From an uncultured Candidatus Saccharibacteria bacterium (lineage in GTDB: Bacteria > Patescibacteriota > Andersenbacteria > UBA10190): 64,000 bases of DNA. Below, piece after piece: positions 7,067 through 63,919 of the stretch. The stretch lies in the NCBI GenBank assembly GCA_964392095.1, contig CAYMOF010000001.1:12401-76400 (forward strand). The letters run 5' to 3'. Within the stretch, counting starts at the first letter, position 1; each line of letters starts with the position of its first letter. The translations under genes and the position numbers were made by a program. The notes under the pieces are model-generated. The model worked only from the letters and a program-made list of their open reading frames with translations, ran no database searches and had not been told where the DNA came from.

Positions 7067-7068
7067 CC

Positions 7069-7653: not shown

Positions 7654-7661
7654 ATTATTTT

Positions 7662-12998: not shown

Positions 12999-13186
12999 TA
13001 CCCTATTCGGAACCAGCCGCTGAAGTATCAGAACCTGCCGGGCCTAGCGCCGCCTCGTTATGTGAGTAGATTCCCTATAGTCTCTTTATCAAAACCGACA
13101 AATAGGTTACAAAATATACAGCTTGAGATTAGTATTATGAAATCGGACTTTATGTAGCGTACACACCACGCCCTTAATTAATATTT

Positions 13187-16193: not shown

Positions 16194-16236
16194 TTTTCTC
16201 CATTTACCTCATCAACCAAAATGCTATTGTTTACCC

Positions 16237-17430
16237 ATGCATATACTTTTTTCTATACCAAGTGGATTTCACTTACGAGAAATTCTTCTTCCTTTAAAGC
16301 CTCTCATCGATCAAGACACCTCAATTGAGAAAGTCACCTGCCTGTGCCCGGCAGCGCCGTTTAAAGACAAACTTTTTAAAGAATATAAAGAAAAATATCA
16401 CTTCATTAAAAACCCCACCGATGAAAAAGAAACCACAAAATTGTTAGACCAAATTAAGCCCCAGCTTGTAGTTACCAACACAAGCGGGCTTGATTCTCTC
16501 GATCTGCCCCCCTTAAAATCAGCCCAATCTTTAAAAATCCCCACTTTTACTTTCATCTCCAGCTGGGATAATGTCTGGAAAATGGAAAGGCTAAAAAATG
16601 ACAACGGCTGTCAAATCCTCGCCGATACTATTGTTGTATGGAACCCCACCATGAAAAACCTCCTCCTCAAAATTTTTCCAACAGACCCCGAAAAAATTAA
16701 AATTATCGGCGCTCCCCGCTTAGACTTCTTTCACCATCCGGAAAAAATACCAACCCGCGAACAACTTTTTTCTCACCTCGGCCTAGACGACCCGGAGCGT
16801 AAATTAATACACCTTTCCTCAACCGAACTGTATCCTTTCGACTATGTCGTCAAAACCATAAGCAAAGCAATCGATAGCGATAAAATCAACCACCATCCCT
16901 ACTTATACCTTTCCGTACATCCCGGCGGCGACATAAACCGCCACAAAAAATATACCCAAAAATACAATGTCTTAACTCGCTATTCCTTTGGCAGGTTACC
17001 GACCTCTCCTCACCCCAACTTCCTCTATAATCCCACCATTAAGGACGTATATCTACTAACGTCTCTATTCGTTCACAGTGACCTTCTAATTAATCACTCC
17101 TCAACCACTGCCATCGAATCATTTTTGGGCCACACACCGGTCATAAACATAAATTACGGACGCCCATTTGACTACTTTAATTGGCGCCGCTCAATGGTTT
17201 ACCGTGACTTTAAACAGCACTATCAACAAATCCTGAAAGCCAAAGCGACCAAAATAGTCAAAAACCCCTCTGAACTAATAAACGCGATAAAAGCCTACCT
17301 AAACAATCCGCATGCCGACGCCGACGGTCGCCAAACCGCCTTAAAAAATATCTTGGCATCGGCCGATAAGCCCTGTGCTCCTCAAATACTGTCTCTCATA
17401 AAAACCTCTGTTGGCAGGGGTGATAGGTAG
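16237..17430 (+). CDS. TagF/TagB-like CDP-alditol (glycerol/ribitol) phosphotransferase family protein
   Basis: LYLSVHPGGD and LFVHSDLLINHSSTTAIESFLGHTPVINI correspond to the Glyphos_transf motifs k.HP and aDvLITDYSS..fDF..l.kPvI. Confidence 0.5.
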   Translation: MHILFSIPSGFHLREILLPLKPLIDQDTSIEKVTCLCPAAPFKDKLFKEYKEKYHFIKNPTDEKETTKLLDQIKPQLVVTNTSGLDSLDLPPLKSAQSLKIPTFTFISSWDNVWKMERLKNDNGCQILADTIVVWNPTMKNLLLKIFPTDPEKIKIIGAPRLDFFHHPEKIPTREQLFSHLGLDDPERKLIHLSSTELYPFDYVVKTISKAIDSDKINHHPYLYLSVHPGGDINRHKKYTQKYNVLTRYSFGRLPTSPHPNFLYNPTIKDVYLLTSLFVHSDLLINHSSTTAIESFLGHTPVININYGRPFDYFNWRRSMVYRDFKQHYQQILKAKATKIVKNPSELINAIKAYLNNPHADADGRQTALKNILASADKPCAPQILSLIKTSVGRGDR

Positions 17431-33906: not shown

Positions 33907-36255
33907 ATGACCAGAAATAATATCATTATCTCTAACCTCATTACAGTCGCTCTGTACATTCTTTCTCTCGCCATAAAACATATAAATCCCGAAAATAACC
34001 TTTTTCAAGCACCCCTTATCGCCGTATCTTTTCTGCTTGTTATTACAATCGGCCTAAGTCTTGCCTATATACAACAACAACTTTTTTATCTCCGGTTAGA
34101 CAAATGGCTGTTTTTTTTAATCGCCATACTAAACACCTTCTTTTTCCTACCCGTATTATTTACCCTTATTTTTTTTATCAGCGGCACCATAAACTACATT
34201 TTAGTATTACTTACCCTACTCGCAATCTTCTTGCTCCCCGTTTTTTGGCCAAAAATCAATAATTCTATTTTCCACCGCCCAACTATCCATACGCTTTCCA
34301 TAAATAAAAAAAACGGCTGGCAATCGATATTCCATCCCGTTATCTTTGCCTTTCTCTTTATACTTACCGTCCACATAATCAATACCAACATGTATGCGTT
34401 TCTTCCTGCTCCCGACTCATACAGCTGGTTATCAGCATACAATGAAGACCTTCACCACGAAGCCACTAAATTTATCGGCGGTTATGATCGCCTCACTCTC
34501 GCCTCTTTTACTGCCATTATCAAACAATTATCGGATGTGGACCTATTTATCTTGTTTAAATATGTTTATCCTCTTTTTTCAGCATTTACCGTTTTTCCCC
34601 TTTGGTTACTCGCTCGGCGCCTGAAATCTTACCCGGCCCAACTCCTCATCCTGCTACCTTCCTTTCTCTGCCCCGCTATTATCTATGAACTGGAAATGAC
34701 CCGCCAAATAATACTATTTTTCGTCTTCTTACCCTTCTACATTTCTCTTTTATATGAAGCCAAGAATAAAAAAGACCGTTCTCTTTTTCTTTTAACCGGC
34801 TTCTTTACTGCCCTTGGTTCATTTGCCCACCCCTTATTCAATATTCTCACTATATTTTGGCTCTTGTCATTCGTTCTCTTTTACTGGCGCGCTCTTTTAA
34901 AGCCTAAAATCATCCCTCTGCTTTTGATTGCTCTAGCAGTTCTTTGGAAATTCGGACTGCGCAGCATGATAACTCGAATCAGAGACCAAGTAATAATAAT
35001 ATTTGAAAACATCGCCCAAGGCGAACACAATTTTAAATTCCCCGCCCACTTCGTCAATGTTGACAACAATGAAGTTGGCTGGGCTGGTTTGACCGGTGTT
35101 CTGAAATACTACGGATTCTATCTGGGACCCCTGGCGGCGCTAATTTTGTTAACTTTCACATTGCTCATAATTTTTAACAAAAAATCCAGGCAATCTTTTC
35201 TTAAAACACTTCTTTCTCCCTACACATTACCCGTTACCCTTTCTCTGCTTTTCTTCCTGTCGGTTGCCGAAATATTTCCCCGATTTGTTAATATTGCCTA
35301 TCTCCCGGAAAGATCTCTGCAATACTTCACCTTATCCCTTCTTTTTATAGCTTTTCTGATTCTAAAAAAAATCCACCGAGCAAAATTTTGGCGCCTTGCC
35401 TTTCCTTTAGCCGCTCTCCTAGCCATGTCTGTTAATGTCGCCGGAGCTTCTTATATAAGCTATTTAAACATATACGTCTTCCCGGAATACGAATGGCAAG
35501 CCATGAAATGGATAAAAAACAATTTGCCGCCGGACCGAATCATCTTTTCCCGCACTTCAGGAAATTTAATATCAATTCATTCTGGCTCACGCCGAAAAGC
35601 GGTTTGGCACCGTTATCTAACTAATGCCACTCCGGAAGAGCTCATCGGCTTTCTTAAAGAAGAATTAAAGCCCCCGGACTATGTTCCTCTCCTTCGTCAA
35701 AGCATGGCCTTCGCTGAATCAACCAGCCGTGTCACTGAGTTGTCTAATTTTCTCAACGACTGCCTTATGCACGACGACTATCCGCCCAACATGGAGGGCC
35801 AAGTAACCAACTGTCTGGCTTGTGAACCTACCAGTCAAGGCTACAAAACCAGTCTCAAAAGCTCTTGCGCAGGCGGCCCCCTTCACTTCCCGCAAGAGGA
35901 AATTCGCCCTTGGGCAAAAAGGGCTGAAGAATTTTCTCAGGAAATATCAAACTTCATGAACGACTACCAGAAATTCGCTTTACAACTCGAGCTTGAAACC
36001 AATGTTAACAACCAAACCACCACCGATCCTGTCTATATATACTATTCTCTGCCTCACGAAAAAAACCCTTATAGTGATCGCCCCTATCTTTCTCTAAACT
36101 TTGGAGAAGCCTCCTTCTTCCCTCCCCTTGATGAAAACCCTGGGCTTTTTACCCGCGTTTATGAAGATGAAGATAAAGTAATTATCTGGAAAGTCAGCCC
36201 CGAAGTCCTGGAAAAACCAAACATTAACCATGTTTCTGGAAGAGACCTGCTATGA
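33907..36255 (+). CDS. Large polytopic membrane protein with C-terminal soluble domain. GT-C-fold candidate.
   Basis: 782 aa. More than 12 hydrophobic helices in the first ~500 aa, then a hydrophilic domain. Same architecture as the ORF at 3272. Confidence 0.35.
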   Translation: MTRNNIIISNLITVALYILSLAIKHINPENNLFQAPLIAVSFLLVITIGLSLAYIQQQLFYLRLDKWLFFLIAILNTFFFLPVLFTLIFFISGTINYILVLLTLLAIFLLPVFWPKINNSIFHRPTIHTLSINKKNGWQSIFHPVIFAFLFILTVHIINTNMYAFLPAPDSYSWLSAYNEDLHHEATKFIGGYDRLTLASFTAIIKQLSDVDLFILFKYVYPLFSAFTVFPLWLLARRLKSYPAQLLILLPSFLCPAIIYELEMTRQIILFFVFLPFYISLLYEAKNKKDRSLFLLTGFFTALGSFAHPLFNILTIFWLLSFVLFYWRALLKPKIIPLLLIALAVLWKFGLRSMITRIRDQVIIIFENIAQGEHNFKFPAHFVNVDNNEVGWAGLTGVLKYYGFYLGPLAALILLTFTLLIIFNKKSRQSFLKTLLSPYTLPVTLSLLFFLSVAEIFPRFVNIAYLPERSLQYFTLSLLFIAFLILKKIHRAKFWRLAFPLAALLAMSVNVAGASYISYLNIYVFPEYEWQAMKWIKNNLPPDRIIFSRTSGNLISIHSGSRRKAVWHRYLTNATPEELIGFLKEELKPPDYVPLLRQSMAFAESTSRVTELSNFLNDCLMHDDYPPNMEGQVTNCLACEPTSQGYKTSLKSSCAGGPLHFPQEEIRPWAKRAEEFSQEISNFMNDYQKFALQLELETNVNNQTTTDPVYIYYSLPHEKNPYSDRPYLSLNFGEASFFPPLDENPGLFTRVYEDEDKVIIWKVSPEVLEKPNINHVSGRDLL

Positions 36256-51613: not shown

Positions 51614-52432
51614 ATGAAATACTACGACCCCAAAAACAAAAGATTATACTTCACCGGCCCGGCGGCTACCTGCTGTTACTGGGACAAACAATGGAAAGAA
51701 GACAATGACATTGTAAAGCTCCTCAAAACCGGCGGCGGCGACAATCTAGTCAGATCAATCACTCCCAAGTTTATCCAGCCCTCCCCTCAAGCCAAAGTAA
51801 TTGACGCCGGCTGCGGCAAAGGACAACACGTTGTCTCTTTAAAAAATCTGGGCTACTCGTCTTATGGGGTTGACTACGCCCCTAAAACCATCTCTCTCAT
51901 AAAAAAAATCAGGCCTGACCTGAAAGTAAGTTGTGCCGACATTACCGACCTCCCTTTTCCTAATGCCTACTTCGACGGTTACTGGTCGCTGGGAGTAATT
52001 GAACATTTCTACTCCGGCTTCGAGCCAGCGGCTAAAGAGATGGCCAGAGTAGTAAAGCCAAACGGCTACCTCTTTCTTGTTTTTCCCCACATGTCCTCCT
52101 TAAGAAAAACAAAATCGGCTTTATCTTTTTATCACACCTTCGACCCTCAAATTCACGACGCTGCCCATTTTTATCAGTTCGCGCTCCACGACAAAGACGT
52201 TATCAAAACCATGAGCCAATACGGCTTTCGCCTGATTTCCAAGAAGAAAAACAACGGACTTAAAGGACTAAAAGATGAATCGGCCTTCCTAAAGCCGCTA
52301 CTTCAACAACTATACGATCACCCTTCCCCGCCTATAAAAGCCACTAAAGTAATACTTTCAAAATTACTAACCCCGCTCACCAGCCACACTGTCGTTCTGG
52401 TTATGAAGAAGCAGGATAATAATTACGCCTAA
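51614..52432 (+). CDS. Class I SAM-dependent methyltransferase
   Basis: KVIDAGCGKGQH (motif I), FDGYWSLGVIEH, NGYLFLVFPH. Confidence 0.75.
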   Translation: MKYYDPKNKRLYFTGPAATCCYWDKQWKEDNDIVKLLKTGGGDNLVRSITPKFIQPSPQAKVIDAGCGKGQHVVSLKNLGYSSYGVDYAPKTISLIKKIRPDLKVSCADITDLPFPNAYFDGYWSLGVIEHFYSGFEPAAKEMARVVKPNGYLFLVFPHMSSLRKTKSALSFYHTFDPQIHDAAHFYQFALHDKDVIKTMSQYGFRLISKKKNNGLKGLKDESAFLKPLLQQLYDHPSPPIKATKVILSKLLTPLTSHTVVLVMKKQDNNYA

Positions 52433-53144
52433 CGTAATCATACAACTTTATATCCAAATCATTTTTCTTCCTTATTGTTTCCAGCTGTCCTTCGGTTAAC
52501 CCTCCCGTCCTAGTACGCGGTCGGTTAGCGTTATATCTTTTCTTTTCGCTATACTGTATCTCCTCGTCCTTAAAACCAAGTTTTTCTTTAACTTCCCGCA
52601 AAAACAAATCATATTTCTCCATTAGTCCCACCACCGCGAAATTATCCAGGTTTTTCTTAGCTTGTTCCAAATCACACTTATAAGGGTAAGACAGCCACTT
52701 AGTCATGTGGTTTGACTGCCGGCATAAAACCCCTCCGCTGTGCATATAATTATCCTCCTCTTCATTAAACCATTGATTAAACGGCATCTTCTCTTTTACT
52801 GCCTCGCTCACTTGATTTCTAGTCATTTTCCTGGCTTTCATAGGCGCGTCAAATAAGTACTTATAATACTCTGACAAAACCCGATCCACCGGCTCCCTTA
52901 ACAACACCACGTATTTACCGCCAGGCACGATTTCATCCTGCGCTTCCGGATTATAGGCCTGGTGAAAAGAATACACGCTGTAAGGCCTCTTGATAACACC
53001 GTCCAGCTCTTGATGATAGCTTCGATAATTATACACTTTCATTCCTCTTCGCCTGGCATACCTAACCAACAAACCATAAAAAGTGCTGCTTCCCACCCGG
53101 ACAAGCCTCACAAAGATAATCCTAGTCTGATTTTCCCTTCCCAT
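52401..53144 (-). CDS. PAPS-dependent sulfotransferase family protein
   Basis: RVGSSTF (5'-phosphosulfate-binding loop analogue of KTGTT) and LLREPVDRVLSEY (3'-phosphate-binding RDP..R..S motif). The 3' end overlaps the convergent MTase by 32 nt. Confidence 0.6.
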   Translation of the reverse strand: MGRENQTRIIFVRLVRVGSSTFYGLLVRYARRRGMKVYNYRSYHQELDGVIKRPYSVYSFHQAYNPEAQDEIVPGGKYVVLLREPVDRVLSEYYKYLFDAPMKARKMTRNQVSEAVKEKMPFNQWFNEEEDNYMHSGGVLCRQSNHMTKWLSYPYKCDLEQAKKNLDNFAVVGLMEKYDLFLREVKEKLGFKDEEIQYSEKKRYNANRPRTRTGGLTEGQLETIRKKNDLDIKLYDYVRRNYYPASS

Positions 53145-53149
53145 AATAA

Positions 53150-53995
53150 TTATTTCTTCTGCCTTAATTCCCTAAGCTTAGATGTTACTAAGAGCAAAGA
53201 TCTAACAATCTTCTCTGTAAACTTACGCGGTCCTTCTATTGGATTCAACTGTCTCTGGCAAGCTACTTTCAACACAAACTCATTGTCAACATTCCTATAT
53301 AAACCCCGCTCGTAACAGCCTCGCCCCCTAGCCTCCATTATCGGCTCTAAACCCTCTTTAATAAACTTGTCTGGCCTCGGCAGAGCCGCCGTCTCCAACA
53401 AAGCTACTCTGTATCCAGCATCAAACAATTCGCTCAAAACCCCCTTCAAAGAGCGCCCCTCGTCATATATTAATGGATGCACTTCCATTAATATATTTAC
53501 TTCATTTGTCCTTTTCAAATAATCCAGGCTTCCCCGCAACACATCCACCTCATAACCTTCTATGTCCATTTTTACAACTATGGGTCCACAAATATCTTGC
53601 TCTTTTATGAAGCTTTCAAGGGTAACATACTCTGTCTTTATTGAATCATCATAAGACTCCGCGGCAATTGCCGTGCTTAAATTCCTTTTCTTTTTATTCA
53701 AATAAAAAAAACCTTTACCGCTCTGGTCAGAAACCGCCTGGGAAAATAAATAAAAATTATCTCGACTGCCCAGAATCCTAGTTATTTTATTTCTGTTATA
53801 ACTGTCCGGCTCCAAAATATAAATCTTAATATCGTCACCATATTTTTTGAACAAGTATCTAGCCTCATAACCATCGCTCGACCCAATTTCTATAACATTC
53901 GTACCAGCTACCACCGCCTCATCCAACATGGCCATAAATATCGGCTCTCTCGGCTCTCTTTTTAAAATCTTAACAAGTTGTCGCGCCTTAATCAT
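53150..53995 (-). CDS. FkbM-family SAM-dependent methyltransferase
   Basis: NVIEIGSSDGYEARYL and VVKMDIEGYEVDVLRGS. Confidence 0.7.
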   Translation of the reverse strand: MIKARQLVKILKREPREPIFMAMLDEAVVAGTNVIEIGSSDGYEARYLFKKYGDDIKIYILEPDSYNRNKITRILGSRDNFYLFSQAVSDQSGKGFFYLNKKKRNLSTAIAAESYDDSIKTEYVTLESFIKEQDICGPIVVKMDIEGYEVDVLRGSLDYLKRTNEVNILMEVHPLIYDEGRSLKGVLSELFDAGYRVALLETAALPRPDKFIKEGLEPIMEARGRGCYERGLYRNVDNEFVLKVACQRQLNPIEGPRKFTEKIVRSLLLVTSKLRELRQKK

Positions 53996-54585
53996 CTAAC
54001 AAATCTTTTTAAAACACTCTTCAGCCACGCCCCCAGTCTCCCCTTGGCTCTGATCCTGTTTTCTAAATACTCGCTCTGATCCGTTTCCATTTTGGGAGTC
54101 TGCCAGTCTCCGTATTGATACTCTAAATACTCTTCCGGCGACGACGGACATTCATACCAGCTCCCCCGAAACAAAATCTTCCCCGTATTATTAAAAAACT
54201 TAATCGGATAACGCCAGTTCCTCCTTTTTCTGAATCTGCTCTTCTCCTCATATCCTAATAAAGAATATTTCGTTCCATACTTATGAACATTAATCTTCAT
54301 GTTGCCCTTATCGATCACTATCGACCCCGGCCTAAAACCTGAATTTCTCAACCCTTCTTTTATTGCCTCGAATTTTTCCTGCATCTGCTCCGCGTACAAA
54401 GCCAGCTCCACATCCCAGTCCCACTTAATAAAATCTTTTTCTCTCACCGCCCCCAACAAAACCCCGTCAATCAACAAAAATTTTACCCCCAAGCCATCCA
54501 ACACCCTTTTTATTTGAACCAAACCTTCATTGCGATTTTCCAACTCCTCTTTAGAAAATATTTTTAGCTTTTTATCCAACTTCAT
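53992..54585 (-). CDS. LicD-family phosphotransferase (phosphocholine/alditol-phosphate transferase family)
   Basis: KFLLIDGVLLGAVREKDFIKWDWDVELAL matches the LicD motif (LLGAVRH.GFIPWDDDIDV). Confidence 0.75.
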   Translation of the reverse strand: MKLDKKLKIFSKEELENRNEGLVQIKRVLDGLGVKFLLIDGVLLGAVREKDFIKWDWDVELALYAEQMQEKFEAIKEGLRNSGFRPGSIVIDKGNMKINVHKYGTKYSLLGYEEKSRFRKRRNWRYPIKFFNNTGKILFRGSWYECPSSPEEYLEYQYGDWQTPKMETDQSEYLENRIRAKGRLGAWLKSVLKRFVR

Positions 54586-54604
54586 ATTTTATCTTAATAT
54601 CAAA

Positions 54605-54724
54605 GCTAGTTCTTTTGGCGAATTAGAGGTCCTTTTCGGCCTGGTCCCACGCTCAGCGTGGACGAAAAGGGCCAAAGCCTCGGAGCTACCGCTGGGGCAA
54701 CGAGAATGAGCCAAAAGAACTAGC
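54605..54724. repeat. 120-bp GC-rich palindromic element. Perfect 15-bp terminal inverted repeats enclose nested hairpins. Candidate structured RNA or MITE-like element.
   Basis: GCTAGTTCTTTTGGC (54605-54619) is the exact reverse complement of GCCAAAAGAACTAGC (54710-54724). Inner stems are 54631-54638/54663-54670 (CCTTTTCG/CGAAAAGG) and 54647-54652/54656-54661 (CCACGC/GCGTGG). Confidence 0.4.
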
Positions 54725-54746
54725 CTTGATAATCCAAAACATAAAC

Positions 54747-55568
54747 TCACCATTTCCCCTTATAAAATAATCTCTGAAAAGGCACCGGAATAAAATGCTT
54801 CGGCGCCATCCCTAAATGCTTTACTTTTTCTTTCGGTAAATATTTCTTCCATAATTCCAACTTATCATAAAAGCACTTTAGCCTCTTATACCTCATATCA
54901 GACCATTTGTGCTGAAACGGCTTGCCGATAATCAGATAATATATAGGGCCTTTATAGTGCAATATATGGCATTCCTCACCCCACGGCTCATAATGCCGCG
55001 CTCTATTTAACTCACCCACATAAAAACCCTTAAACCTCACTCCATATTTAGTAAACGGCTTCGTATAATCCTCTCCCTCAACCAATGACATAAACGCGTG
55101 TTGATCAGTACCTCCTTTATCAACAATTTCCATAGTCTTTTCTTTGTACTTCCTGAAAAAATCCCTTACCGCCCGATTATTCCTACACAACATCACCCCG
55201 CTGTTTAACCACTCTTTCGGCACATGTGACAAATATCGGTAAGTAAAACCTATATCATAATCTCCAAAATACTGATCGACGGGCTTTAAAATCAGTGTAT
55301 CCGCGTCCATAAACAACACCCAATCTCCCTCAGCCTTCTCCAGACCCATCTCCCAGCAAGGTAGTTTCAAGCTTCCTGGATGGGGATGCGAATCCATCTT
55401 TTCCCGCAAAATAACATCTTCAATGGGAATATCCTTGCCTACCACAATAGGCTTAATGCCCGGATAAACCCGCCTGATGCTTTCTTTTAAAGCTTCCAAA
55501 AACAAGTCAACCTTGCTCCCAAAAGCCGCCACCACTATGTCTAAACCATTTTTTTTAATATTGGTCAT
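54747..55568 (-). CDS. GT8-like nucleotide-diphospho-sugar (GT-A) glycosyltransferase
   Basis: FMDADTLIL (DXD) and WLNSGVMLCRNN (GT8 motif resembling F.NSGVLLIN). Confidence 0.5.
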   Translation of the reverse strand: MTNIKKNGLDIVVAAFGSKVDLFLEALKESIRRVYPGIKPIVVGKDIPIEDVILREKMDSHPHPGSLKLPCWEMGLEKAEGDWVLFMDADTLILKPVDQYFGDYDIGFTYRYLSHVPKEWLNSGVMLCRNNRAVRDFFRKYKEKTMEIVDKGGTDQHAFMSLVEGEDYTKPFTKYGVRFKGFYVGELNRARHYEPWGEECHILHYKGPIYYLIIGKPFQHKWSDMRYKRLKCFYDKLELWKKYLPKEKVKHLGMAPKHFIPVPFQRLFYKGKW

Positions 55569-55677: not shown

Positions 55678-56456
55678 ATGAGTTTCAAGCTCCAAGTTCT
55701 CGGTTCTGGTATCGCTGCTCCTTTTGATAACCGCATGCCTTCCGGATACCTCGTCATCACCGGCAACACAGAGATCTTGCTCGAATGCAATCCATTCACT
55801 ATCGGAGCCCGCCTATCCGCCATTAACATCACCTCAATCTCTGGAATCCTCGTCACCCACGCCCACAACGACCACTCCGGTGGAGAAGTCGCCTTCCTGG
55901 AAGCCTTCCGCACCAGACACAAAATACTCGGAAAGCCGATTCCCCCCTTTACTTTATGCGGCCCCGCCCCAAACCGTTTCTTCAAGACATACCTTAAAAA
56001 ACAACTTCAGTGGCGCTGGCCGGAATTGCCAGAAGAAGATTGTTTTTGGAAAATCCCATCAGAATTGAATCGCTTCTCGCTGGGTGATGCCTGGATAACC
56101 GCCTTTCCTGTCAACCGCGTCCCCGAAATGCCGGCCGTCGGCTACCATATCCAGTATGGAAATCAGTCCTTAGTCTACTGCGGCGATTTTGGCACCACTC
56201 AATTCCAAAACGTCAACACCCTTGGCCAGTGGATCACCGACGCTGACCTGCTCATCCTCGACTGCGGAGCCCCCACTGAATCCCCAGCCACCTGACCATT
56301 GAGCAGGGCCACAAGATCAAACAGCGGTTCCTCGCCCGCAAACTCCTGGCCACCCACATTCCCGCTCACCGCGTAGGAAATGTCCGCGAGCGCATCGCTG
56401 CCCTCAATGACCCAGATGTCATCCTCGCTGAAGATCTCATGGTGCTTGATATCTAA
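55678..56456 (+). pseudogene. MBL-fold metallo-hydrolase, ~60% GC, interrupted by a frameshift near 56280-56293
   Basis: ILVTHAHNDHSGG (HxHxDH) and CGDFG. The ORF stops at 56295, but the C-terminal remainder (HLTIEQGHKIKQRFLARKLLATHIPAHR...MVLDI*) continues in another frame from 56280 to 56456. The shift maps to C-homopolymers (CCCCC at 56270-56274, CCCC at 56282-56285). Confidence 0.6.
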
Positions 56457-56554: not shown

Positions 56555-57235
56555 TCATTTTCCATTTTCTCTCCTTCCCCACATTCTCTTCACCTTCCCT
56601 AAAATATTCTTCAACACCACATTTCCTCTTTTTCCAGCAAAATGATCCGCGTTATAATACTCCTCATCAATATCGGATCTCTTGGGGGTTTGCCAGTCAC
56701 CATAAACATGCTCCAAGAACTTTTCCGGCGGTGACGGCACTAAAAACTGCCTCCCCTTAAAATCGATTTTCTCTTTTTCGTTGAAAAAACGAGCCGGGTA
56801 CTTATAAGCCGGACGAGTCCTGTACTCACCATCGTCACGCAATGCCCCTAAAGCGATTTTTTGGCCGTATTTAAAAAACGCCATCTTAGGAAACCTATTA
56901 CTTTCAATCAACCGCACCACGAAACCAGCCTCTATCAACCTTTCTTTCAATTCCTTCATCACCCCGACAAACTCCTCCTCCAACATGTCCAAATCAACAT
57001 CATCGTCCCAGGCAATGAAATTATTCTCTCTAATTGCCCCCAGTAAACTTCCCCCCGTTAACCAAAACCTGACGCCGGCAGAACTCAATACGTCGCTGGC
57101 CTCCTGCAAGGCCTTCTCTCTTGCCTGTAAATCAAACGGGTAAGGTTGGACTACTCGGGGTCTTGCTTTTTTCCATCTCCTGCGCGACAGGTTGCTCAAA
57201 CGCCTGATTTCACCTTGTGAAAATTCGTAACTCAT
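56555..57235 (-). CDS. LicD-family phosphotransferase (second paralog)
   Basis: RFWLTGGSLLGAIRENNFIAWDDDVDLDM. Roughly 45% identical by eye to the LicD at 53992. Confidence 0.75.
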   Translation of the reverse strand: MSYEFSQGEIRRLSNLSRRRWKKARPRVVQPYPFDLQAREKALQEASDVLSSAGVRFWLTGGSLLGAIRENNFIAWDDDVDLDMLEEEFVGVMKELKERLIEAGFVVRLIESNRFPKMAFFKYGQKIALGALRDDGEYRTRPAYKYPARFFNEKEKIDFKGRQFLVPSPPEKFLEHVYGDWQTPKRSDIDEEYYNADHFAGKRGNVVLKNILGKVKRMWGRRENGK

Positions 57236-57912
57236 ACCATCTTCACACTATACCTCCACCTGGACTGCATATAAAACTCTAATCGATCAATATCCTCATC
57301 ATAAAATTCAACCTTTCTGCCCAACTCATCCCCGATTTTAATAAAAAATTCTTTATCATAAAACATATGGCTCGGGGTAACCTTTCCCCCGACCTTTTTT
57401 CGGCTCTCCAGCCTATCTAAATATCTTTCCCTCTTCTTTTTCTTACCCGCATCATTCACATCACCGATAATAATTCGTCCGTCCTTTTTGGCCACCCTAA
57501 CCATCTCTTTAACCGCCTGGATCGCGTACTTACAAGACGGAAAATACTGCCAAACGCTCCAAGCGCAAACCACGTCAAAACGATTGTCATCAAAAGGAAT
57601 CTTATTAGCTTCGGCTACTCTAAAATCACCCTCTATGTTTTTCCTGATAATATCAATTGAATCTTTAGCGTAATCAACCCCCGCCAAACTTCCCCACTTT
57701 TCAACCTCCATAAGAATCGCCCCCGCCCCGCAACCTACCTCCAAAACATCATCCCGAGAGCCAATCTCACACAGATCCAAAAAATAGTCGGCCAAATCCT
57801 TCCACTGTTTTCTATTTAGGGTTTCAAAACCATCCATCACGTGAAGAATATCAACATCGCCGCCAGGCCGATATTTTTTGTCCCATATTTTTAACCACTG
57901 TTTATCCCTCAT
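57232..57912 (-). CDS. Class I SAM-dependent methyltransferase
   Basis: VLEVGCGAGAIL (motif I), FDVVCAWSVWQYF, DGRIIIGDV. Confidence 0.7.
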   Translation of the reverse strand: MRDKQWLKIWDKKYRPGGDVDILHVMDGFETLNRKQWKDLADYFLDLCEIGSRDDVLEVGCGAGAILMEVEKWGSLAGVDYAKDSIDIIRKNIEGDFRVAEANKIPFDDNRFDVVCAWSVWQYFPSCKYAIQAVKEMVRVAKKDGRIIIGDVNDAGKKKKRERYLDRLESRKKVGGKVTPSHMFYDKEFFIKIGDELGRKVEFYDEDIDRLEFYMQSRWRYSVKMV

Positions 57913-59714
57913 ATGTCTATCCTGATCCTGCCCTGATCAACAGAAGAATATCCGGCAGAAAAGACGGTTCCCTCTTTCACATAATCCTTAGCCCCTTTTA
58001 CCGCCTGTTCTCTTTCCATTTCCGGTATTTTTTTTGATACTTCCTCACTGTCATCAGCCCACCCCTCCTCGCTAAGCCTGTAAGCCTCGACCCTTTTTAC
58101 ATTATCGCTATTAATCACGCCATTTTTAAACCCAAAGAAAACTATCCACTTGTAATGATCATCATATCCGGCTACTCCCACTGATCCAAGAGTCTTGTAA
58201 TCTACCGTTTCATTAATCCAATAAACACCTCCGTAAAACCTCTCGCTTACCGCCTCGTAGTATCCGGGCAACTCCCAGCCGGCCACTTCCGCCAGTAAAC
58301 CATAAACAGAAGATGTCGCACTAATAAATTTACCAGCTTTTTCTTGCCACCTGCCAGCACCTTCCCAGCCTTCTGAAGTTTTAAACATCATTGGCACCCG
58401 CAAGCGGTCCTCATAAAACTGATAACTATATCTGGTATAAGGCGGTACCGACCGGCCATGATCAGCCAATAACACAATATGACTCTGGGGAAAATACGAC
58501 TCCCCTTCCAACCAGGTCAACAGAGTTTCCAAAAACAAATCCAGCTGTTTCAAAGTCTCCCAATACCCGCTAAAAGCCGCGTTGTTTTTATCTTTTGTGC
58601 CTCTAATACTCGCGTAGGGCGGGTGGGCCCCAGGCAAATGCAAATGAACATAAGTCGGCTCCCGCCTAGCATTAGCTATAAATTGCGTCGCTGTTTTTAG
58701 GGACGGATATTTTCTTATCCGACCACTGCAAACATTTATGTACCTGTGAAAACCACGCGCGTGCCCATATTGAGGCCGCCACTTGGAAAAAAAAGTCAAG
58801 CCTAAGCTTTTGTAACCGTCACCCGAGGCCAATTCAGCCACCGTTTTTATACGAGGAGAAAGTGTCATTAATTTGTCGCTATAATGCCAAGTGTCATAGT
58901 CGTAAATCATATGCCTGGTTAAACCCAGGCCGGTCATCAAACAAGCCGAAGCGCTGCCGGTCACGCTAGCCGAACACACCGCCTTTTTAAAAACAATTGA
59001 ATTTTCGGCCATCTTATTAAACCCCTTCAGCTCCGTCCGGCCCCTTAGGTCACTAGCCGTCACCGCGTCAACAGATAATACCAACAACAGGGGGGGCTTT
59101 TGTCCTTTTTTTTTAAAACAAGCCCTAGTTAAAAAAACTTTTTTATCATTTTTTTTGCCGCTCTTATCTTTAACCTCGACGTCATCAACATAAACAGTTA
59201 AATTTCCCTCTTTACTTACTAATTGATCGGGAATCTCAACCAACAACTCCACCCACCAGTCTTCTTTATCAACATTTCTCGCAAAATCTCTGTCAAAACC
59301 GCACTTAAAACTATATTCTTCCCCCTCTTTGTTGCCGTAACCACTTCCAAAAATCATCCTGCCCTTCACCCGCAAAGACCCAATCTCTCCTACCGGCTTT
59401 CCCGTAAAAACCTCAAAAGACACTTCTCGACCCGCTTTTACCCCCTTCCTCTCATACACTTTCACTGGTCCGCTCTTGCCCCACTTTCTACAAAGCCTGC
59501 CTTCATAACTTTGATAATCACGTGTTTTTTCTTTATGAATCAAAACCACGCTCCTCTCTTTTTCAATCCCAACAACTCGACCGCGCTTGTATCTGCCAAC
59601 CTTCACGGACACCAGATACTTCACTTTCTCCCAGGCTTTCTTAATCTCTTCCCGCCAATTAAGCCTTTCTTCAAATACTAAAATCTGTTGCTTTTTATCG
59701 CTCACACTCCACAA
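57909..59714 (-). CDS. Alkaline-phosphatase-superfamily sulfatase-like protein with ~190-aa N-terminal soluble extension. Lacks the C/S-x-P-x-R FGly motif.
   Basis: LLLVLSVDAVTASDL (metal-binding Asp region), HLHLPGAHPPY, IVLLADHG (sulfatase/LtaS GDHG motif). The nucleophile region is TGSASACLMTG in place of CxPSRxxxLTG. No TM helix. The sense strand carries A9 (top T9 at 59106-59114). Confidence 0.6.
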   Translation of the reverse strand: MWSVSDKKQQILVFEERLNWREEIKKAWEKVKYLVSVKVGRYKRGRVVGIEKERSVVLIHKEKTRDYQSYEGRLCRKWGKSGPVKVYERKGVKAGREVSFEVFTGKPVGEIGSLRVKGRMIFGSGYGNKEGEEYSFKCGFDRDFARNVDKEDWWVELLVEIPDQLVSKEGNLTVYVDDVEVKDKSGKKNDKKVFLTRACFKKKGQKPPLLLVLSVDAVTASDLRGRTELKGFNKMAENSIVFKKAVCSASVTGSASACLMTGLGLTRHMIYDYDTWHYSDKLMTLSPRIKTVAELASGDGYKSLGLTFFSKWRPQYGHARGFHRYINVCSGRIRKYPSLKTATQFIANARREPTYVHLHLPGAHPPYASIRGTKDKNNAAFSGYWETLKQLDLFLETLLTWLEGESYFPQSHIVLLADHGRSVPPYTRYSYQFYEDRLRVPMMFKTSEGWEGAGRWQEKAGKFISATSSVYGLLAEVAGWELPGYYEAVSERFYGGVYWINETVDYKTLGSVGVAGYDDHYKWIVFFGFKNGVINSDNVKRVEAYRLSEEGWADDSEEVSKKIPEMEREQAVKGAKDYVKEGTVFSAGYSSVDQGRIRIDI

Positions 59715-59796
59715 CTATTAATTACATTTATTATTACATCCGGACCTGGATATTGGGATCGCCCCATATAATAATCCGCTTCTTTCACGTCACTCC

Positions 59797-62004
59797 TTAA
59801 TAAAACACTCTCTTTCCAGCCCCTACCCTTTTTCTAACCATCTCCTGAATCTCCCTCCGCATAAACCAGTCCGGCAGATCCCTGCCTTCCTGAAAAGCCT
59901 TGCGGGCCTGGGTACCGCTAATCATCTCCACTGTGCCCGCTTCACTCAAACTCACATAAGTTTTCCTTTTAGGATTAAAACCAACCGCCTCAAAGAATAC
60001 CGGCTCAACACCAATATCCCCAACCTTTTCAAATATTTCCTTTGTTTCTCTGGGCTTATAAAAATCTCCTACTCCAGTATGGTCGCGCCCGACAATAAAA
60101 TGGCTACACCCCATATTTTTCCTGCATAAGGCAGTAAATACTGCCTCCCTGGGGCCGGCGTATCTTGAATAAGTGGAAAAGCTTCCTAAAACAGCCCTGC
60201 CTTTAGGATAAGCTCCGTTTTTAATAGCCAGTTCATAGCTTCTCATTATCGGCCCCGTTAACCAGTCACCGCTTTTCTTAGGGCCTATCACCGGGCTCAA
60301 AAATAACCCGCTTGCTCCCGTCCTTTTAAGGGCCGTCAACTGCAAATACTCGTGCGCTCTATGCACCACATTTCTTGTATGAAAACCCACCACTTTACGC
60401 CACCCCTTATGGGTAAATATTTGCCGCGTCTGATGCGGATCCAGCTCATATTTCCGCCAAACAGAATCCCCTTTTTCTATCAATTCCACCTCTCCCGCTA
60501 TAAACATCTCCCCCGATTCCATAAACCTTCTCACTCCCGGATGATCCCGAGACGTTGTCTTAAACCACAGCCTGGCCGCTTCTTCCCGATCACATTCATA
60601 AACTTCGCTAACTTTCAATAAACTATGCTTTTTGCCCTTGCCATCTTTTAGAACAACTCTCATGCCCGGTTTAATTTTTTCAGCTCTTCTTCTATCTACC
60701 TGCAATATAACCGGCATAGTCCAAACGCACCCGTTCAGCAATTTCATATCATATAAAACACTAAACAGCTCGTCTTTAGTCATAAATCCAGAAACCGGTG
60801 AAAATGTGCCTAGAGCGATCTGCTCACAATCCATCAGGTCGGTATCCTCCACTGTCAAGCTCATCAAATCATCTAAATCTTCCTTTGAACCGCTATACAA
60901 ATTTTTCAAAAGTTTTCCCCCGTGAGGCTCCACCAGCATAGACACCGAAGTGGACACTATGAAGCTTTTCGTTTCTCCGACCTCCCTTTCATATTGCTTC
61001 ATTAATCTTATTATCATTTCCGCGCAAGCTACCGGATATCTGCCCACCGCCGTCTCAGCCGCTAACACCAAACCGTCAGCCCCGTCCGCTAAAGTGTTGT
61101 AAATATCATTAACTTCCGCCCTGGTAGGAACAGGCGCTTCCACCATAGATTCCAACAGATTAGTGGCCACGTAAACGCGCCTGTCCAGATTATGACACTC
61201 AGCAATTATTTTTTTCTGCAAACGAGGAAGCAGCTCTATTGAAGCCTCCCGCGACAAATCGCCTCGATCAATCAAGATATCGTTCGCGCTTGCGGCAATC
61301 TGCTTCAAATTTAACAACCCTTCTTCACATTCAATTTTCGCCGTAACCTTAAACCCTTCCCCAACAATTTCTCTCACCTCTTGTATATCTTCAACGCGAT
61401 GAGCAAAAGATAACGCCACGTTGCTTATCCCCAAACCTTTAACCTGCTTCAAAGCCTCTCTGTCTTTATCTGTTAAAGGAGATAACCTTATTTTTCTATC
61501 AACAGAAAGAGCTTTGTTCTGCTCAATTATCCCTTCTTCCAAAACCTTTAAAATCACTTTTTTCTCGTCTTTTACAATAACCCGCAACAAAACTTTTCTA
61601 TAATCAACGGTCACCAGATCCCCAACCCGCAAGCTTCTGCCTACTTCTTCTGGGTAAAAACTGAAATTAGGCCCCGCGGCTATCGCGTTACCCCCACCTT
61701 CTTTTAGATAAACCGTTAACTCCTCCTCCTCTTCCACCCAAATTTTTCTTCCTCCCTGATATCCCGTCCTGGGCTGGGCTCCTTCCGTATCAATACATAT
61801 CGGAACCGCGCTGTGTCTTCTAACCAGCCCCACCAAATTACCTAAATCATAAACATCCGTATGAGACATGTTGATTCTGAACAAATTAACCCCCAGATCC
61901 GTTAAGCTCCTTATTACCTCCGCGTTCATTGACGCCGGTCCCAAGGTGCACCAAACTTCTTTTCCCTTATTAAATTTGGATATTTCTGACATAAACTTCG
62001 TCAA
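59797..62004 (-). CDS. Fusion protein: pyruvate-kinase-like N-terminal domain (A+B domains, catalytic residues conserved) joined to a complete ATP sulfurylase (sulfate adenylyltransferase, Sat type)
   Basis: N-terminal part: TLGPAS..NLFRINMSHTD, IDTEGAQPRTG, KIECEEG, DRGDLS, ATNLLESMVEAPVPTRAEVNDIYNTLADGADGLVLAAETAVGRYP (PK signatures). C-terminal part: PUA-like segment LVEPHGGKLL..., then GFHTRNVVHRAHEYL (QTRNP.HRAHE motif) and IVGRDHTGVGDFY (GRDHAG motif). Confidence 0.75.
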   Translation of the reverse strand: MTKFMSEISKFNKGKEVWCTLGPASMNAEVIRSLTDLGVNLFRINMSHTDVYDLGNLVGLVRRHSAVPICIDTEGAQPRTGYQGGRKIWVEEEEELTVYLKEGGGNAIAAGPNFSFYPEEVGRSLRVGDLVTVDYRKVLLRVIVKDEKKVILKVLEEGIIEQNKALSVDRKIRLSPLTDKDREALKQVKGLGISNVALSFAHRVEDIQEVREIVGEGFKVTAKIECEEGLLNLKQIAASANDILIDRGDLSREASIELLPRLQKKIIAECHNLDRRVYVATNLLESMVEAPVPTRAEVNDIYNTLADGADGLVLAAETAVGRYPVACAEMIIRLMKQYEREVGETKSFIVSTSVSMLVEPHGGKLLKNLYSGSKEDLDDLMSLTVEDTDLMDCEQIALGTFSPVSGFMTKDELFSVLYDMKLLNGCVWTMPVILQVDRRRAEKIKPGMRVVLKDGKGKKHSLLKVSEVYECDREEAARLWFKTTSRDHPGVRRFMESGEMFIAGEVELIEKGDSVWRKYELDPHQTRQIFTHKGWRKVVGFHTRNVVHRAHEYLQLTALKRTGASGLFLSPVIGPKKSGDWLTGPIMRSYELAIKNGAYPKGRAVLGSFSTYSRYAGPREAVFTALCRKNMGCSHFIVGRDHTGVGDFYKPRETKEIFEKVGDIGVEPVFFEAVGFNPKRKTYVSLSEAGTVEMISGTQARKAFQEGRDLPDWFMRREIQEMVRKRVGAGKRVFY

Positions 62005-62069: not shown

Positions 62070-63860
62070 TTATCCGCCTTGCGCAGCCAGCAATCTCGCG
62101 TAGAGACCTCCTTTTTGTTTCAATTTCTCGTGAGCCCCTTCTTCCGTTATTTGGCCCCTGTCTAACACGACAATTCTGTCCGCGTCGGCTATGGTCGATA
62201 AACGGTGAGCAATAACCACACTCGTCCGCCCCGCCCCCACCCTGTCTAAAGCTTCCTGCACCAAATTCTCCGACTCGCTATCCAAAGCCGAAGTTGCCTC
62301 GTCTAGAATCAATATTTCCGGATTCCGCAAAACCGCCCTGGCAATAGCTATACGCTGTCTCTGTCCGCCCGACAGTCTTATACCCCTATCCCCCAGCATA
62401 GTATTATACCCCCCCTTAAAACTGGTGATAAATTCATGAGCGTTAGCTAATTTTGCCGCTCTTTTTATATCAGCAAACGTCGCTTTCTCATCCGCGAAAC
62501 CTATATTAGCCTTTATCGTGTCGTTAAACATAAACGTATCTTGCGTCACCACCCCAATATGCTCCCGCCAAGACTCGATTCTATAATCTCTCAAGTCCGT
62601 GCCATCAACCACAATCCTTCCCTCCTGCGGATCAAAAAACCTAAGCAGTAATCCAGCCACGGTAGATTTCCCCCCCCCTGAAGGCCCAACAATAGCCACC
62701 TTCTTTCCTTTTCTAACAACAAAAGACACGTTTCTTAAAGCATAATGATCGTCCTCACTATATGTAAAACCAATCTTTTTAAAAACGATCTCTTTTGCTA
62801 AACCGTTATAACTCTTCTCCCCATCCGGCAAATAAACCTTATTGCTTTTATTCAAAAACTCATCCAGTCCCTTAAGAGCCGGCAACACACCGGCTATACT
62901 CGCCCGCCCCTGGTTAATCATGGCTACCGGCACTATTAGCCTGAACAGAATAATCACAAAAGTTAAAAGCGCTTCCATCCACTTGTTAAGATCTCCGGCT
63001 AACAAAAAAGAGGCCACTATTAATATCAAAGCCAGCGACGTTACGCTTGTCATTTCAAACATTGGTAAAACCGATGCGTTGGCCCGCGCCCCCATGTAAG
63101 TGGCGTCAGCATTTTTGTCTATCGCCTTATACACCTCTCTTCTCACTAACTTTTCCCTGTTAAACGCTTTTATCACTCTCATTCCGCCAATAGCCGACAA
63201 TATCAGGTCATTAAGTTTTTTCATAGCTTCGTTCCCCAGTTTATTGGCCATCTCCGCTCTTTTCATTGCCCCCCTTAATGTCAGTGACGACAAAAATACC
63301 AGCACCAGCGAAACTATAGTTAATTGCCAGGATATAACAAACAGCATCATCAAAAGCACCAGTATTGTGAATAATTTCGGTATCATCGGCCCCACCGCAT
63401 TAACCAGAGTGCCCATCCAACTAGTGTAATAGGACGCGATAGTAAACAAATCTGAGCCTCTTTGCTTTTCCAGATAACCGGTGCTTACCTGCAACAACTG
63501 CGTAAAGCAGAATCGCCGAAACCTGCTCACGGTATTAGCCACTAAGCGAGCGGTAACTTTAGCGTTAAAGTAATAAACCGCCCCCTTTAACGTCGTTAAA
63601 ACCAAAAGCAGTACGGCCACCCGGCGGATACGATCCACGGCGCCTACGTCTGCAAACCAGCGCGCGAAAACATTCAGCGCCGCGGGCAGAGCGCTAACTT
63701 CACTGCCGCTCACGCCCTGAAGCAACGGAACCACCAGTGTCATTGTCAGTCCTTCCAACACCGACACCGCGACTCCTGATACCGCTAAACCGGCTACCAG
63801 CCAGGGAAACAATTTATACAGCCTGTATCCTCTTTTTATTAAATCAATATAAACCCGCAT
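62070..63860 (-). CDS. ABC exporter, fused TMD-NBD (MsbA/type I exporter-like)
   Basis: Six-helix TMD, then Walker A GPSGGGKST, signature LSGGQRQRIAIARA, Walker B ILILDEAT. The track ORF starts at TTG 63896. The first ATG is at 63858-63860 (MRVYIDL...). Confidence 0.85.
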   Translation of the reverse strand: MRVYIDLIKRGYRLYKLFPWLVAGLAVSGVAVSVLEGLTMTLVVPLLQGVSGSEVSALPAALNVFARWFADVGAVDRIRRVAVLLLVLTTLKGAVYYFNAKVTARLVANTVSRFRRFCFTQLLQVSTGYLEKQRGSDLFTIASYYTSWMGTLVNAVGPMIPKLFTILVLLMMLFVISWQLTIVSLVLVFLSSLTLRGAMKRAEMANKLGNEAMKKLNDLILSAIGGMRVIKAFNREKLVRREVYKAIDKNADATYMGARANASVLPMFEMTSVTSLALILIVASFLLAGDLNKWMEALLTFVIILFRLIVPVAMINQGRASIAGVLPALKGLDEFLNKSNKVYLPDGEKSYNGLAKEIVFKKIGFTYSEDDHYALRNVSFVVRKGKKVAIVGPSGGGKSTVAGLLLRFFDPQEGRIVVDGTDLRDYRIESWREHIGVVTQDTFMFNDTIKANIGFADEKATFADIKRAAKLANAHEFITSFKGGYNTMLGDRGIRLSGGQRQRIAIARAVLRNPEILILDEATSALDSESENLVQEALDRVGAGRTSVVIAHRLSTIADADRIVVLDRGQITEEGAHEKLKQKGGLYARLLAAQGG

Positions 63861-63879
63861 AGCTAAATGGTACTTTATA

Positions 63880-63919
63880 ACCACCGGCCAACACAAAACT
63901 CCCGAAGGGATCCTTTGGG
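63880..63919 (-). terminator. Weak hairpin followed by a U-tract on the minus strand (possible terminator for an off-window upstream gene, or 5'-leader structure of the ABC gene)
   Basis: Imperfect hairpin at 63901-63919 (CCCGAAGGGATCCTTTGGG). On the minus-strand transcript it is followed by AGUUUUGUGUU. The stem is interrupted by mismatches on that strand. Confidence 0.2.

Follow-up and report, generated by a model that had tools for sequence, protein, structure and literature searches.

A soluble sulfatase-fold protein with threonine at the formylglycine position, encoded next to sulfate activation genes in a glycan biosynthesis island of an uncultured patescibacterium: a candidate glycan-tailoring transferase

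The 64,000-nucleotide segment analyzed here (positions 12,401 to 76,400 of contig CAYMOF010000001.1, assembly GCA_964392095.1; hereinafter, the window) comes from an uncultured Candidatus Saccharibacteria bacterium that is assigned to Andersenbacteria in GTDB. The whole window is a glycan biosynthesis island that encodes more than 20 glycosyltransferases, three Wzx/MurJ flippases, membrane proteins of the YfhO and PMT_2 families, a DegT aminotransferase, and FkbM and class I methyltransferases. The subject of this analysis is a gene on the minus strand that codes for a sulfatase-like protein of the alkaline phosphatase (AlkP) superfamily. This AlkP-like gene occupies the third place in a row of genes on one strand, in which the successive genes are separated by gaps of 65 nucleotides (nt) and 91 nt and then overlap by 4 nt; its upstream neighbor encodes a fusion of pyruvate kinase (PK), PUA_2 and ATP sulfurylase (ATPS) domains (Table 1).

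The open reading frame (ORF) at 57909-59714 (minus strand) consists of 601 codons, with a TTG start and an in-frame TAG directly 5' of it. The N-termini of homologs (ILVFEE, TIVFED, VIVYEE) place the start at the GTG at position 59705, which yields a protein of 598 amino acids (aa), the same as the public gene call P0001. Residues are numbered according to P0001, so that Thr249 corresponds to Thr252 of the 601-aa ORF. Given the stop immediately upstream and the start shared with the homologs, no N-terminal piece has been lost; these two observations and the low hydropathy rule out a missed N-terminal transmembrane (TM) segment or a frameshift. The start of the gene is overlapped by the end (GTGTGA) of a 28-codon upstream ORF (59702-59788, minus strand; VKEADYYMGRSQYPGPDVIINVINSCGV) that has an AGGAG box just 5' of its GTG; the AlkP-like gene itself has no Shine-Dalgarno box, and the overlap may provide translational coupling. 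The small ORF is missing in the related locus L001, where the fusion gene and the AlkP-like gene lie 5 nt apart. Promoter and terminator scans give nothing above chance.

A Pfam search with the protein identifies Sulfatase (PF00884, E=1.1e-16, residues 232-458), and the NCBIfam matches are to sulfatases only, all of them sub-threshold. The preliminary description of this sequence had proposed a sulfatase/LtaS-type fold without the formylglycine signature. The fold is borne out by Pfam, by alignments and by an AlphaFold model, and the absence of the signature is equally clear: a regular-expression scan finds no C/S-x-P-x-R motif in the whole protein, and the aligned site of 16 family members does not contain it either. 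In S1 sulfatases, the motif is defined as C/S-x-P/A-x-R, with the Cys or Ser oxidized to formylglycine (PMC12421950). A phmmer search against PDB pairs SVTGSASACLMTG with SLSGPSRACMITG of a mucin sulfatase, setting TGSAS against SGPSR of 7p24, and the family profile StVTaSsaasllTGl pairs with AICAPSRMSTLTGL of 6hhm (CAPSR against TaSsa). These two independent alignments to solved sulfatases place Thr249 on the Cys/Ser that is converted to formylglycine, with Ser standing for both Pro and Arg of the motif (T-G-S-A-S); together with the motif scan, they exclude a C/S-x-P-x-R hidden from the initial comparison. In the AlphaFold model (pLDDT 70.8, pTM 0.75), helix 249-258 begins with Thr249 and the first core strand ends with D213, and H361 and D415-H416 come after strands 351-357 and 409-414, respectively, so that the modeled active-site layout is the canonical arrangement of the AlkP superfamily. 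Thus, the alignments and the model put Thr in the place of the nucleophile, in keeping with the Thr/Ser candidates originally suggested for this site by analogy with phosphoglycerol and phosphoethanolamine transferases. The companion search for a maturase, also proposed at that stage, detects no formylglycine-generating enzyme (FGE-sulfatase) domain and no radical S-adenosylmethionine (SAM) maturase domain of the anSME type among the window ORFs of at least 120 aa; this question is moot because Thr is not convertible to formylglycine by known systems.

The predicted metal ligand set of the protein (Asp, nucleophile, Asp-His) is that of LtaS and EptA. The originally noted Asp cluster holds in part, consisting of the metal Asp D213 and an invariant D219. 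Of the Asp-Asp ... Asp-Asn/His metal site of S1 sulfatases, D213, D415 and H416 are present and invariant, but where sulfatases have the latter Asp of the DD pair, this protein has Ala and its relatives have Gly or Ala. Similarly, the motifs reported as GDHG and H.PY exist, but actually read ADHG (SDHG in relatives) and HPPY. The same ligand pattern is found in phosphonate monoester hydrolases (PMHs), SpAS2 and EfAS, and in the PMH- and EfAS-type enzymes the second metal Asp is replaced as well, by Gln (PMC12421950).

The Pfam search also yields a Phosphodiest match (PF01663, E=2e-8, 34.7 bits) above the cut-off. This match, the presence of LicD genes nearby, and the resemblance of the T-x-P-S-H-x-S-L-x-T-G-L motif of more distant relatives to the motif of the nucleotide pyrophosphatases/phosphodiesterases (NPPs) are compatible with a hydrolytic editor, i.e., a Thr-type phosphodiesterase or weak sulfatase that would trim phosphocholine, 2-aminoethylphosphonate (AEP) or sulfate, or cut a lipid-linked intermediate. 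We consider such an activity quite improbable. The defining features of NPPs (PF01663) are the NPP core and a site for two metals (Asp, Thr, Asp, His plus Asp, His, His).

The maximal Kyte-Doolittle mean over 19 residues is 1.3, in a segment within the catalytic core (the maximum for the family is 1.78), and no signal-like N-terminus is detected. Judging by these features, the protein is soluble and has no TM segment, in agreement with the preliminary description. The soluble N-terminal extension is likewise real and comprises about 205 aa rather than the approximately 190 first estimated; in the AlphaFold model, it consists of a basic, low-confidence helix followed by a beta-sandwich (residues 53-193). 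An amphipathic in-plane membrane helix was considered and rejected given that the hydrophobic moment of the window protein does not clearly exceed that of shuffled sequences, as it does only in the homologs P0004 and P0014.

Fold placement within the superfamily gives scores for LtaS-type proteins (3lxq, 26.9; LtaP, 26.4; YejM, 26.4; LtaS, 23.8), followed by EptC (22.5), BcsG (20.3), NPPs (about 20), EptA (19.8) and MCR-1 (18.9), with lower values for alkaline phosphatases (14.5-18.7), phosphopentomutase (14.9) and phosphonoacetate hydrolase (14.8); the Foldseek results are concordant. A profile made from the 16 family members retrieves sulfatases and PMHs with E-values of 2e-16 to 9e-15, and LtaS with about 1e-6. 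Taken together with the Thr residue, these results point to a sulfatase-like body with an LtaS/EptA-like nucleophile.

The closest known systems include the S1 sulfatases and PMHs (6hr5, 6hhm, 4upl SpAS2, 2w8s/2vqr PMH, 9koq EfAS), which share with the protein the AlkP-like alpha/beta core and the sulfatase-type C-terminal subdomain. Unlike these enzymes, it has Thr for formylglycine, Ser for the Pro and Arg of the motif, and Ala/Gly at the site of the second metal Asp; moreover, it is predicted to be cytoplasmic, without a signal peptide, carries the additional 205-aa N-terminal region, and is encoded in a biosynthetic rather than catabolic context. With LtaS/LtaP, EptA/EptC/MCR-1, BcsG and GacH it shares a Thr (or Ser) nucleophile and the Glu/Asp plus Asp-His metal site in PF00884. 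However, the LtaS/EptA-type enzymes have 4-5 N-terminal TM helices, are extracytoplasmic and use membrane-lipid donors (PG/PE), whereas the protein analyzed here has no TM, is encoded beside genes for nucleotide-donor synthesis and is nearer to the sulfatases by profile. Thus, lacking both the formylglycine of S1 sulfatases and the membrane domain of LtaS/EptA, it belongs in neither family. PAPS (3'-phosphoadenosine 5'-phosphosulfate)-dependent sulfotransferases and CysQ occupy the same genomic niche, next to the ATPS and adenosine 5'-phosphosulfate (APS) kinase genes of sulfated-glycan clusters (PMC11766843), but are unrelated in sequence and fold. Pfam detects no Sulfotransfer_1, 2 or 3 domain in the protein, the fold of which is AlkP-like; nor is there the inositol-monophosphatase or DHH fold of CysQ and other phosphatases of 3'-phosphoadenosine 5'-phosphate (PAP), the Pfam and NCBIfam matches being of the sulfatase type only.

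The family is rare. A word-index search of 5.8 billion proteins finds four sequences, namely P0001 itself and three homologs with 30-39% identity, and the same search with a wider alignment does not recover the distant members. An exhaustive HMMER search of 1.84 billion cluster representatives yields 31 matches at E<=1e-30, about 16 of which are full-length with the same N-terminal region, the remainder being fragments. There is a distinct score gap between the family (at least 211 bits) and outsiders (at most 151 bits), and no relative of the protein is found in the plasmid collection. One close relative comes from a Candidatus Scalindua metagenome-assembled genome, and the GC content of the other loci, 29-47%, suggests that the family is scattered over several uncultured lineages. 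Where public names exist, they are "hypothetical protein" or "arylsulfatase A-like enzyme".

Across the 16 members, at 20-37% identity, the invariant residues are D213, D219, S283, P311, G318, F319, H356, H361, P363, D415, H416, G417, P438, W496, Y503, G513 and K519; position 249 is Thr in 15 and Ser in one. The family signatures are S-S-T-V-T-A/G-S-S-A-A-S-L, H-L-P-G-x-H-P-P, S-D-H-G-R-S and Y-K-W. Conservation of D213, T249, D415, H416 and H361 at such low identity argues for catalysis, which makes it very unlikely that the protein is a non-catalytic binding or scaffold pseudo-enzyme comparable to YejM/PbgA.

Beyond the score gap, the nearest outside relatives are uncharacterized Thr-type "sulfatase-like" proteins that form thousands of clusters (E-values of 1e-39 to 1e-19) and display the motifs S-x-S-S-W-T-x-P-S-H-x-S-L-F-T-G-L, H-x-x-x-x-H-x-P-Y and S-D-H-G-E-E. 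The tier-2 relatives (P0029-P0055) are likewise TM-free and N-terminally extended, and are encoded in glycan clusters beside a flippase or an ABC exporter. Synteny with sulfate activation genes, in contrast, is found only in the present family.

This synteny, which was overlooked in the preliminary description, provides the principal functional clue. In seven of the nine distinct loci, genes for sulfate activation or sulfotransfer, i.e., the PK-ATPS fusion, APS kinase or a Sulfotransfer_1 protein, are located within two genes of the AlkP-like gene; in addition, a small methyltransferase is encoded nearby in most of the nine loci, and phosphonate genes are present in three. The AlkP-like gene lies directly 3' of the PK-PUA_2-ATPS fusion in the window, L001, L004 and L012/13 (Table 1). 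Despite the presence of PAPS genes, Pfam identifies no canonical sulfotransferase in L001 (21.7 kb), L014 (16 kb), L012 or the P0014 locus. The P0004/Scalindua clade and the tier-2 relatives are found among glycosyltransferases, FkbM methyltransferases, flippases and ABC exporters, which suggests that the substrate is a glycan rather than a nucleotide of housekeeping metabolism.

Table 1. Features of the AlkP-like gene, its neighbors in the window, and gene orders at related loci
Feature	Locus	Coordinates	Strand	Remarks
Thr-type sulfatase-fold (AlkP-like) gene	window	57909-59705	-	598 aa; stop codon 57909-57911
Residues 1-51, basic, poorly conserved, low-confidence N-terminus	window	59553-59705	-	one predicted helix 17-36, not TM
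Residues 53-193, all-beta sandwich	window	59127-59549	-	weakly like jelly-roll carbohydrate-binding modules
Residues 206-490, alkaline phosphatase/sulfatase catalytic core	window	58236-59090	-	
Residues 491-598, C-terminal beta-rich subdomain and helices	window	57912-58235	-	includes invariant W496, Y503, G513, K519
Asp213 codon, predicted metal ligand	window	59067-59069	-	ends core strand 1; followed by Ala214 in place of the second sulfatase Asp
Thr249 codon, predicted nucleophile at formylglycine position	window	58959-58961	-	alignments, model
His361 codon (HPPY)	window	58623-58625	-	aligned to sulfatase/PMH H-x-P His (9bas, 2w8s)
Asp415-His416 codons (ADHG), predicted metal ligands	window	58458-58463	-	
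ABC exporter (ABC_membrane + ABC_tran)	window	62070-63896	-	heads gene string; also near homologs in L001, L002, L006, L018
PK barrel + PUA_2 + ATPS fusion	window	59797-62004	-	conserved upstream neighbor
Class I SAM methyltransferase	window	57232-57912	-	4-nt overlap with AlkP-like stop; orthologs 3' of the gene in L001, L004
LicD-family phosphotransferase	window	56555-57235	-	4-nt overlap with methyltransferase gene
Downstream operon	window	52401-54585	-	LicD 53992-54585, FkbM methyltransferase 53150-53995, Sulfotransfer_2-like 52401-53144; operon (52401-55568) also includes a nucleotide-sugar-transferase-like gene
Gene order	L001 (218-kb contig)			APS kinase, PEP mutase-nucleotidyltransferase, phosphonopyruvate decarboxylase, nucleotidyltransferase, aminotransferase, ABC exporter, PK-ATPS fusion, AlkP-like gene, methyltransferase, LicD, LicD-FkbM
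Gene order	L004			PK-ATPS fusion, AlkP-like gene, methyltransferase, FkbM, LicD, LicD
Gene order	L012/13			cytidylyltransferase, PK-ATPS fusion, AlkP-like gene, truncated methyltransferase
Gene order	L014			AlkP-like gene, stand-alone PK barrel, APS kinase, TauE permease, methyltransferase, PEP mutase, decarboxylase, PhnW-like (label from reading the sequence; no Pfam match), cytidylyltransferase
Gene order	P0014 locus			not a glycan cluster; APS kinase, AlkP-like gene 2 nt on, 777-aa NAD_binding_9 protein, ATPS
Gene order	L017			methyltransferase, AlkP-like gene, Sulfotransfer_1 protein
Gene order	P0022 locus			AlkP-like gene, cytidylyltransferase, cytidylyltransferase-PEP mutase
Gene order	P0004/Scalindua clade			ABC exporter, methyltransferase, asparagine-synthase-like gene, AlkP-like gene, GT1, FkbM
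PEP, phosphoenolpyruvate.

The fusion partner is present, apart from the window, in L001 (7794-9995), L004 (1-1827), L012 (3578-5737), L019 (11983-14163) and L020 (12001-14172), and the literature searches retrieve no description of a PK-ATPS fusion. By eye, the PK motifs (RINMSH, DTEG, KIE, DRGDL, ATNLLESM, ETAVGRYP) are intact, and on the strength of its domains the fusion would couple PEP-driven ATP regeneration to sulfate activation. On megaplasmids of Sinorhizobium chiapasense and Ensifer adhaerens, the fusion precedes APS kinase, and the AlkP-like gene is missing. These cases weaken the possibility that the PK domain is an obligate partner of the AlkP-like protein, and suggest a general PAPS-type module to which the AlkP-like gene is an optional consumer or accessory, with no part in PAPS synthesis itself. 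In the vicinity of a tier-2 relative (P0030, locus L018), an ABC exporter, the AlkP-like gene and a TagD-like cytidylyltransferase are followed, in this order, by a 189-aa protein (12359-12928, plus strand) that is weakly similar to the KIE...DRGDL part of the PK barrel (21.9 bits with Pfam PK; 7e-6 in a BLASTP comparison with the window PK), and that may represent a second, independent link between this type of enzyme and PK-like proteins.

The synteny, the several loci with no other sulfotransferase, and the placement of the PAPS-less clades among glycan genes lead us to prefer, tentatively and well short of an even chance, the possibility that the AlkP-like protein is a cytoplasmic glycan-tailoring transferase that accepts a sulfuryl group from PAPS or APS and donates it to a glycan hydroxyl by a ping-pong mechanism, via O-sulfo-Thr249. 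Which group is moved, from which donor to which acceptor and by what mechanism is inferred from synteny and the active-site class. Under this scheme, the PK-ATPS fusion, together with APS kinase where present, would supply APS or PAPS. A single divalent metal would be bound by D213, T249, D415 and H416, and the metal-activated Thr249 would attack the sulfur of the sulfonucleotide, with PAP or AMP leaving and an O-sulfo-threonine enzyme forming. This intermediate would resist hydrolysis; a sugar hydroxyl of the glycan, which the N-terminal beta-sandwich might hold, would resolve it instead. H361 could serve as general acid/base, and K308 and R425 could grip the monoanionic group. The glycan would thus be tailored on the cytoplasmic side, ahead of export via the adjacent ABC transporter. 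Single-metal PF00884 sites handle monoanionic groups (sulfate monoesters, phosphonate monoesters and phosphodiesters), and mutants of arylsulfatases A and B in which formylglycine is replaced by Ser accumulate a stable sulfo-enzyme. A Thr ester does not allow the hemiacetal elimination that formylglycine permits, which would favor transfer over hydrolysis. Somewhat less probable still is the stronger formulation, a sulfatase turned sulfotransferase in which Thr removes the hydrolytic exit and which would constitute a third, unrelated fold for sulfation, served by an ATP-regenerating PK-ATPS fusion. If the protein is a sulfotransferase, it is an analog of the PAPS-dependent enzymes, not a member of their family; on present evidence, it is a variant within the AlkP superfamily, with a predicted function that the genomic setting narrows down strongly, and would be categorically new only if the sulfotransferase assignment is right.

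Several observations weigh against sulfuryl transfer. We know of no sulfotransferase with the AlkP fold, and the literature searches retrieve no description of one; to our knowledge, the characterized PF00884 members with a Thr or Ser nucleophile (LtaS, EptA/C, MCR-1, BcsG, GacH) all transfer a phospho-alcohol, not sulfate. The Sulfotransfer_2-like protein in the window, which has no homolog in the other loci, and the Sulfotransfer_1 protein in L017 imply that the AlkP-like enzyme is not required there as the sole sulfotransferase. In the P0004/Scalindua clade, there is no sulfate activation gene within 10 kb on either side. K308 and R425 map onto the sulfatase lysines only approximately. Finally, in all six fused ATPS domains, the motif FQTRNP is changed to FH(T/S/G)RN(V/L) and GRDHAG to GRDH(T/S)G (in the window, FHTRNVVHRAHE at about 60330-60370 and GRDHTG at about 60040-60060, minus strand), whereas solved ATP sulfurylases retain Gln and Ala in these columns. 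Both changed positions presumably touch the sulfate of APS, and the replacements of Gln by His and of Ala by Thr/Ser suggest that the activated anion might not be plain sulfate. The fusion and the AlkP-like enzyme may, accordingly to such a variant, activate and transfer another oxyanion by a PAPS-like logic, with the coupled methyltransferase capping the transferred group, which is reminiscent of the O-methyl-phosphoramidate (MeOPN) pathway of Campylobacter; the literature searches return no domain assignment for the Campylobacter MeOPN transferases. The 2012 methylphosphonate paper of Metcalf is said to mention sulfatase homologs in the Nitrosopumilus cluster.

The nucleophile class and the cytidylyltransferase and PEP mutase neighbors are also what would be expected of a cytoplasmic phospho- or phosphono-headgroup transferase, a soluble, nucleotide-donor analog of EptA, LtaS and BcsG. 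In such an enzyme, Thr249 would take the group from CMP-AEP, CDP-ethanolamine, CDP-choline or CDP-glycerol, CMP would leave, and the group would pass to a glycan hydroxyl, a chemistry with which all known Thr-type relatives agree. We nevertheless regard this function as unlikely, even if a serious contender. Two LicD transferases are already encoded in each of the window, L001 and L004; the P0014 locus combines APS kinase and ATPS with no phosphonate, cytidylyltransferase or glycan genes; and the adjacency to sulfate activation genes in 6-7 loci would have to be coincidental. Furthermore, PEP mutase, phosphonopyruvate decarboxylase (Ppd) and AEP aminotransferase are not found in the 64-kb window, although the synteny with L001 predicts them just past its end; APS kinase, CysQ-type, FGE and radical-SAM genes are not found in the window either.

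The two LicD genes of the window, which figured in the preliminary description, are real, and its general conclusion that the protein is a glycan phospho- or sulfotransferase rather than a degradative enzyme fits, as a prediction, all the findings. The LicD argument is the weaker link, with LicD confined to the three closest loci (window, L001, L004). In L001, LicD and an FkbM methyltransferase are fused in a single 474-aa protein (13098-14522, plus strand), whereas their counterparts in the window are separate genes with a 4-nt overlap (53150-54585); the fusion suggests a common site of action for LicD and FkbM.

In the window, L001, L004, L012, L014 and the P0014 locus, the AlkP-like gene stands beside the PK-ATPS or APS kinase genes and not beside glycosyltransferases. 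Sulfated-capsule clusters typically hold cysNC, cysD, cysQ and a sulfate permease together (PMC11766843), so that the gene might fill the cysQ slot, and no inositol-monophosphatase/CysQ domain is detected in any locus examined. These observations are compatible with a PAP phosphatase or another sulfonucleotide-clearing hydrolase, i.e., a non-homologous replacement of CysQ that would clear the inhibitory by-product of sulfotransferases and return AMP to the PK-driven ATP regeneration; this role would also accommodate the canonical sulfotransferases of the window and L017. It is, however, improbable: a dianionic phosphomonoester is an unusual substrate for single-metal PF00884 sites, a protein of 600 aa with a beta-sandwich is larger than a nucleotide phosphatase needs to be, the P0004/Scalindua clade and the tier-2 relatives are encoded in glycan clusters without PAPS genes, and the PK-ATPS/APS kinase module of Sinorhizobium and Ensifer manages without the AlkP-like gene. 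Sulfuryl transfer to a glycan remains the function that we tentatively prefer.

Several other features of these loci deserve mention. In L002, a radical-SAM/SPASM gene and two B12-binding radical-SAM genes (6164-8775 and 14806-16314) flank the P0004 homolog; they superficially resemble an anaerobic sulfatase maturase, but this homolog has Thr and no maturase recognition motif. In the window, a gene for a metallo-beta-lactamase-fold protein (55678-56295, plus strand) is inserted on the opposite strand between the operons that carry the LicD genes; this gene has no counterpart in the syntenic loci L001 and L004, and its product has a weak match to the anti-Pycsar protein Apyc1 (25.7 bits, below the cut-off). 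Large ORFs (392-782 aa) without a Pfam match at E<=1e-4 are located at 29479-31572 (minus strand), 33907-36255, 7662-9170 and 10780-11958 (all plus strand). The GC skew is strongly negative (-0.19 to -0.40) throughout positions 1-64000 regardless of the gene strand, which is indicative of a bias linked to the replication strand and not to the coding strand.

Two uses of this fold are well understood, namely the sulfatases and the lipid-dependent phospho-headgroup transferases, and a soluble, cytoplasmic Thr-type protein fits neither, the more so when its gene is associated with sulfate activation in clusters for glycan synthesis. If sulfate transfer is the true activity, the family would represent a new class of glycan-sulfating enzymes, useful in biocatalysis; it would account for sulfated glycans in genomes without recognizable sulfotransferases and would amount to a natural experiment on the need of sulfatases for formylglycine. 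If phosphonate transfer is the true activity, the family would supply the missing phosphonyl transferase in those clusters that have no LicD. In both cases, the sequences at stake, currently annotated as "arylsulfatase A-like" or hypothetical, make up about 30 clusters, to which a larger tier of soluble relatives is added.

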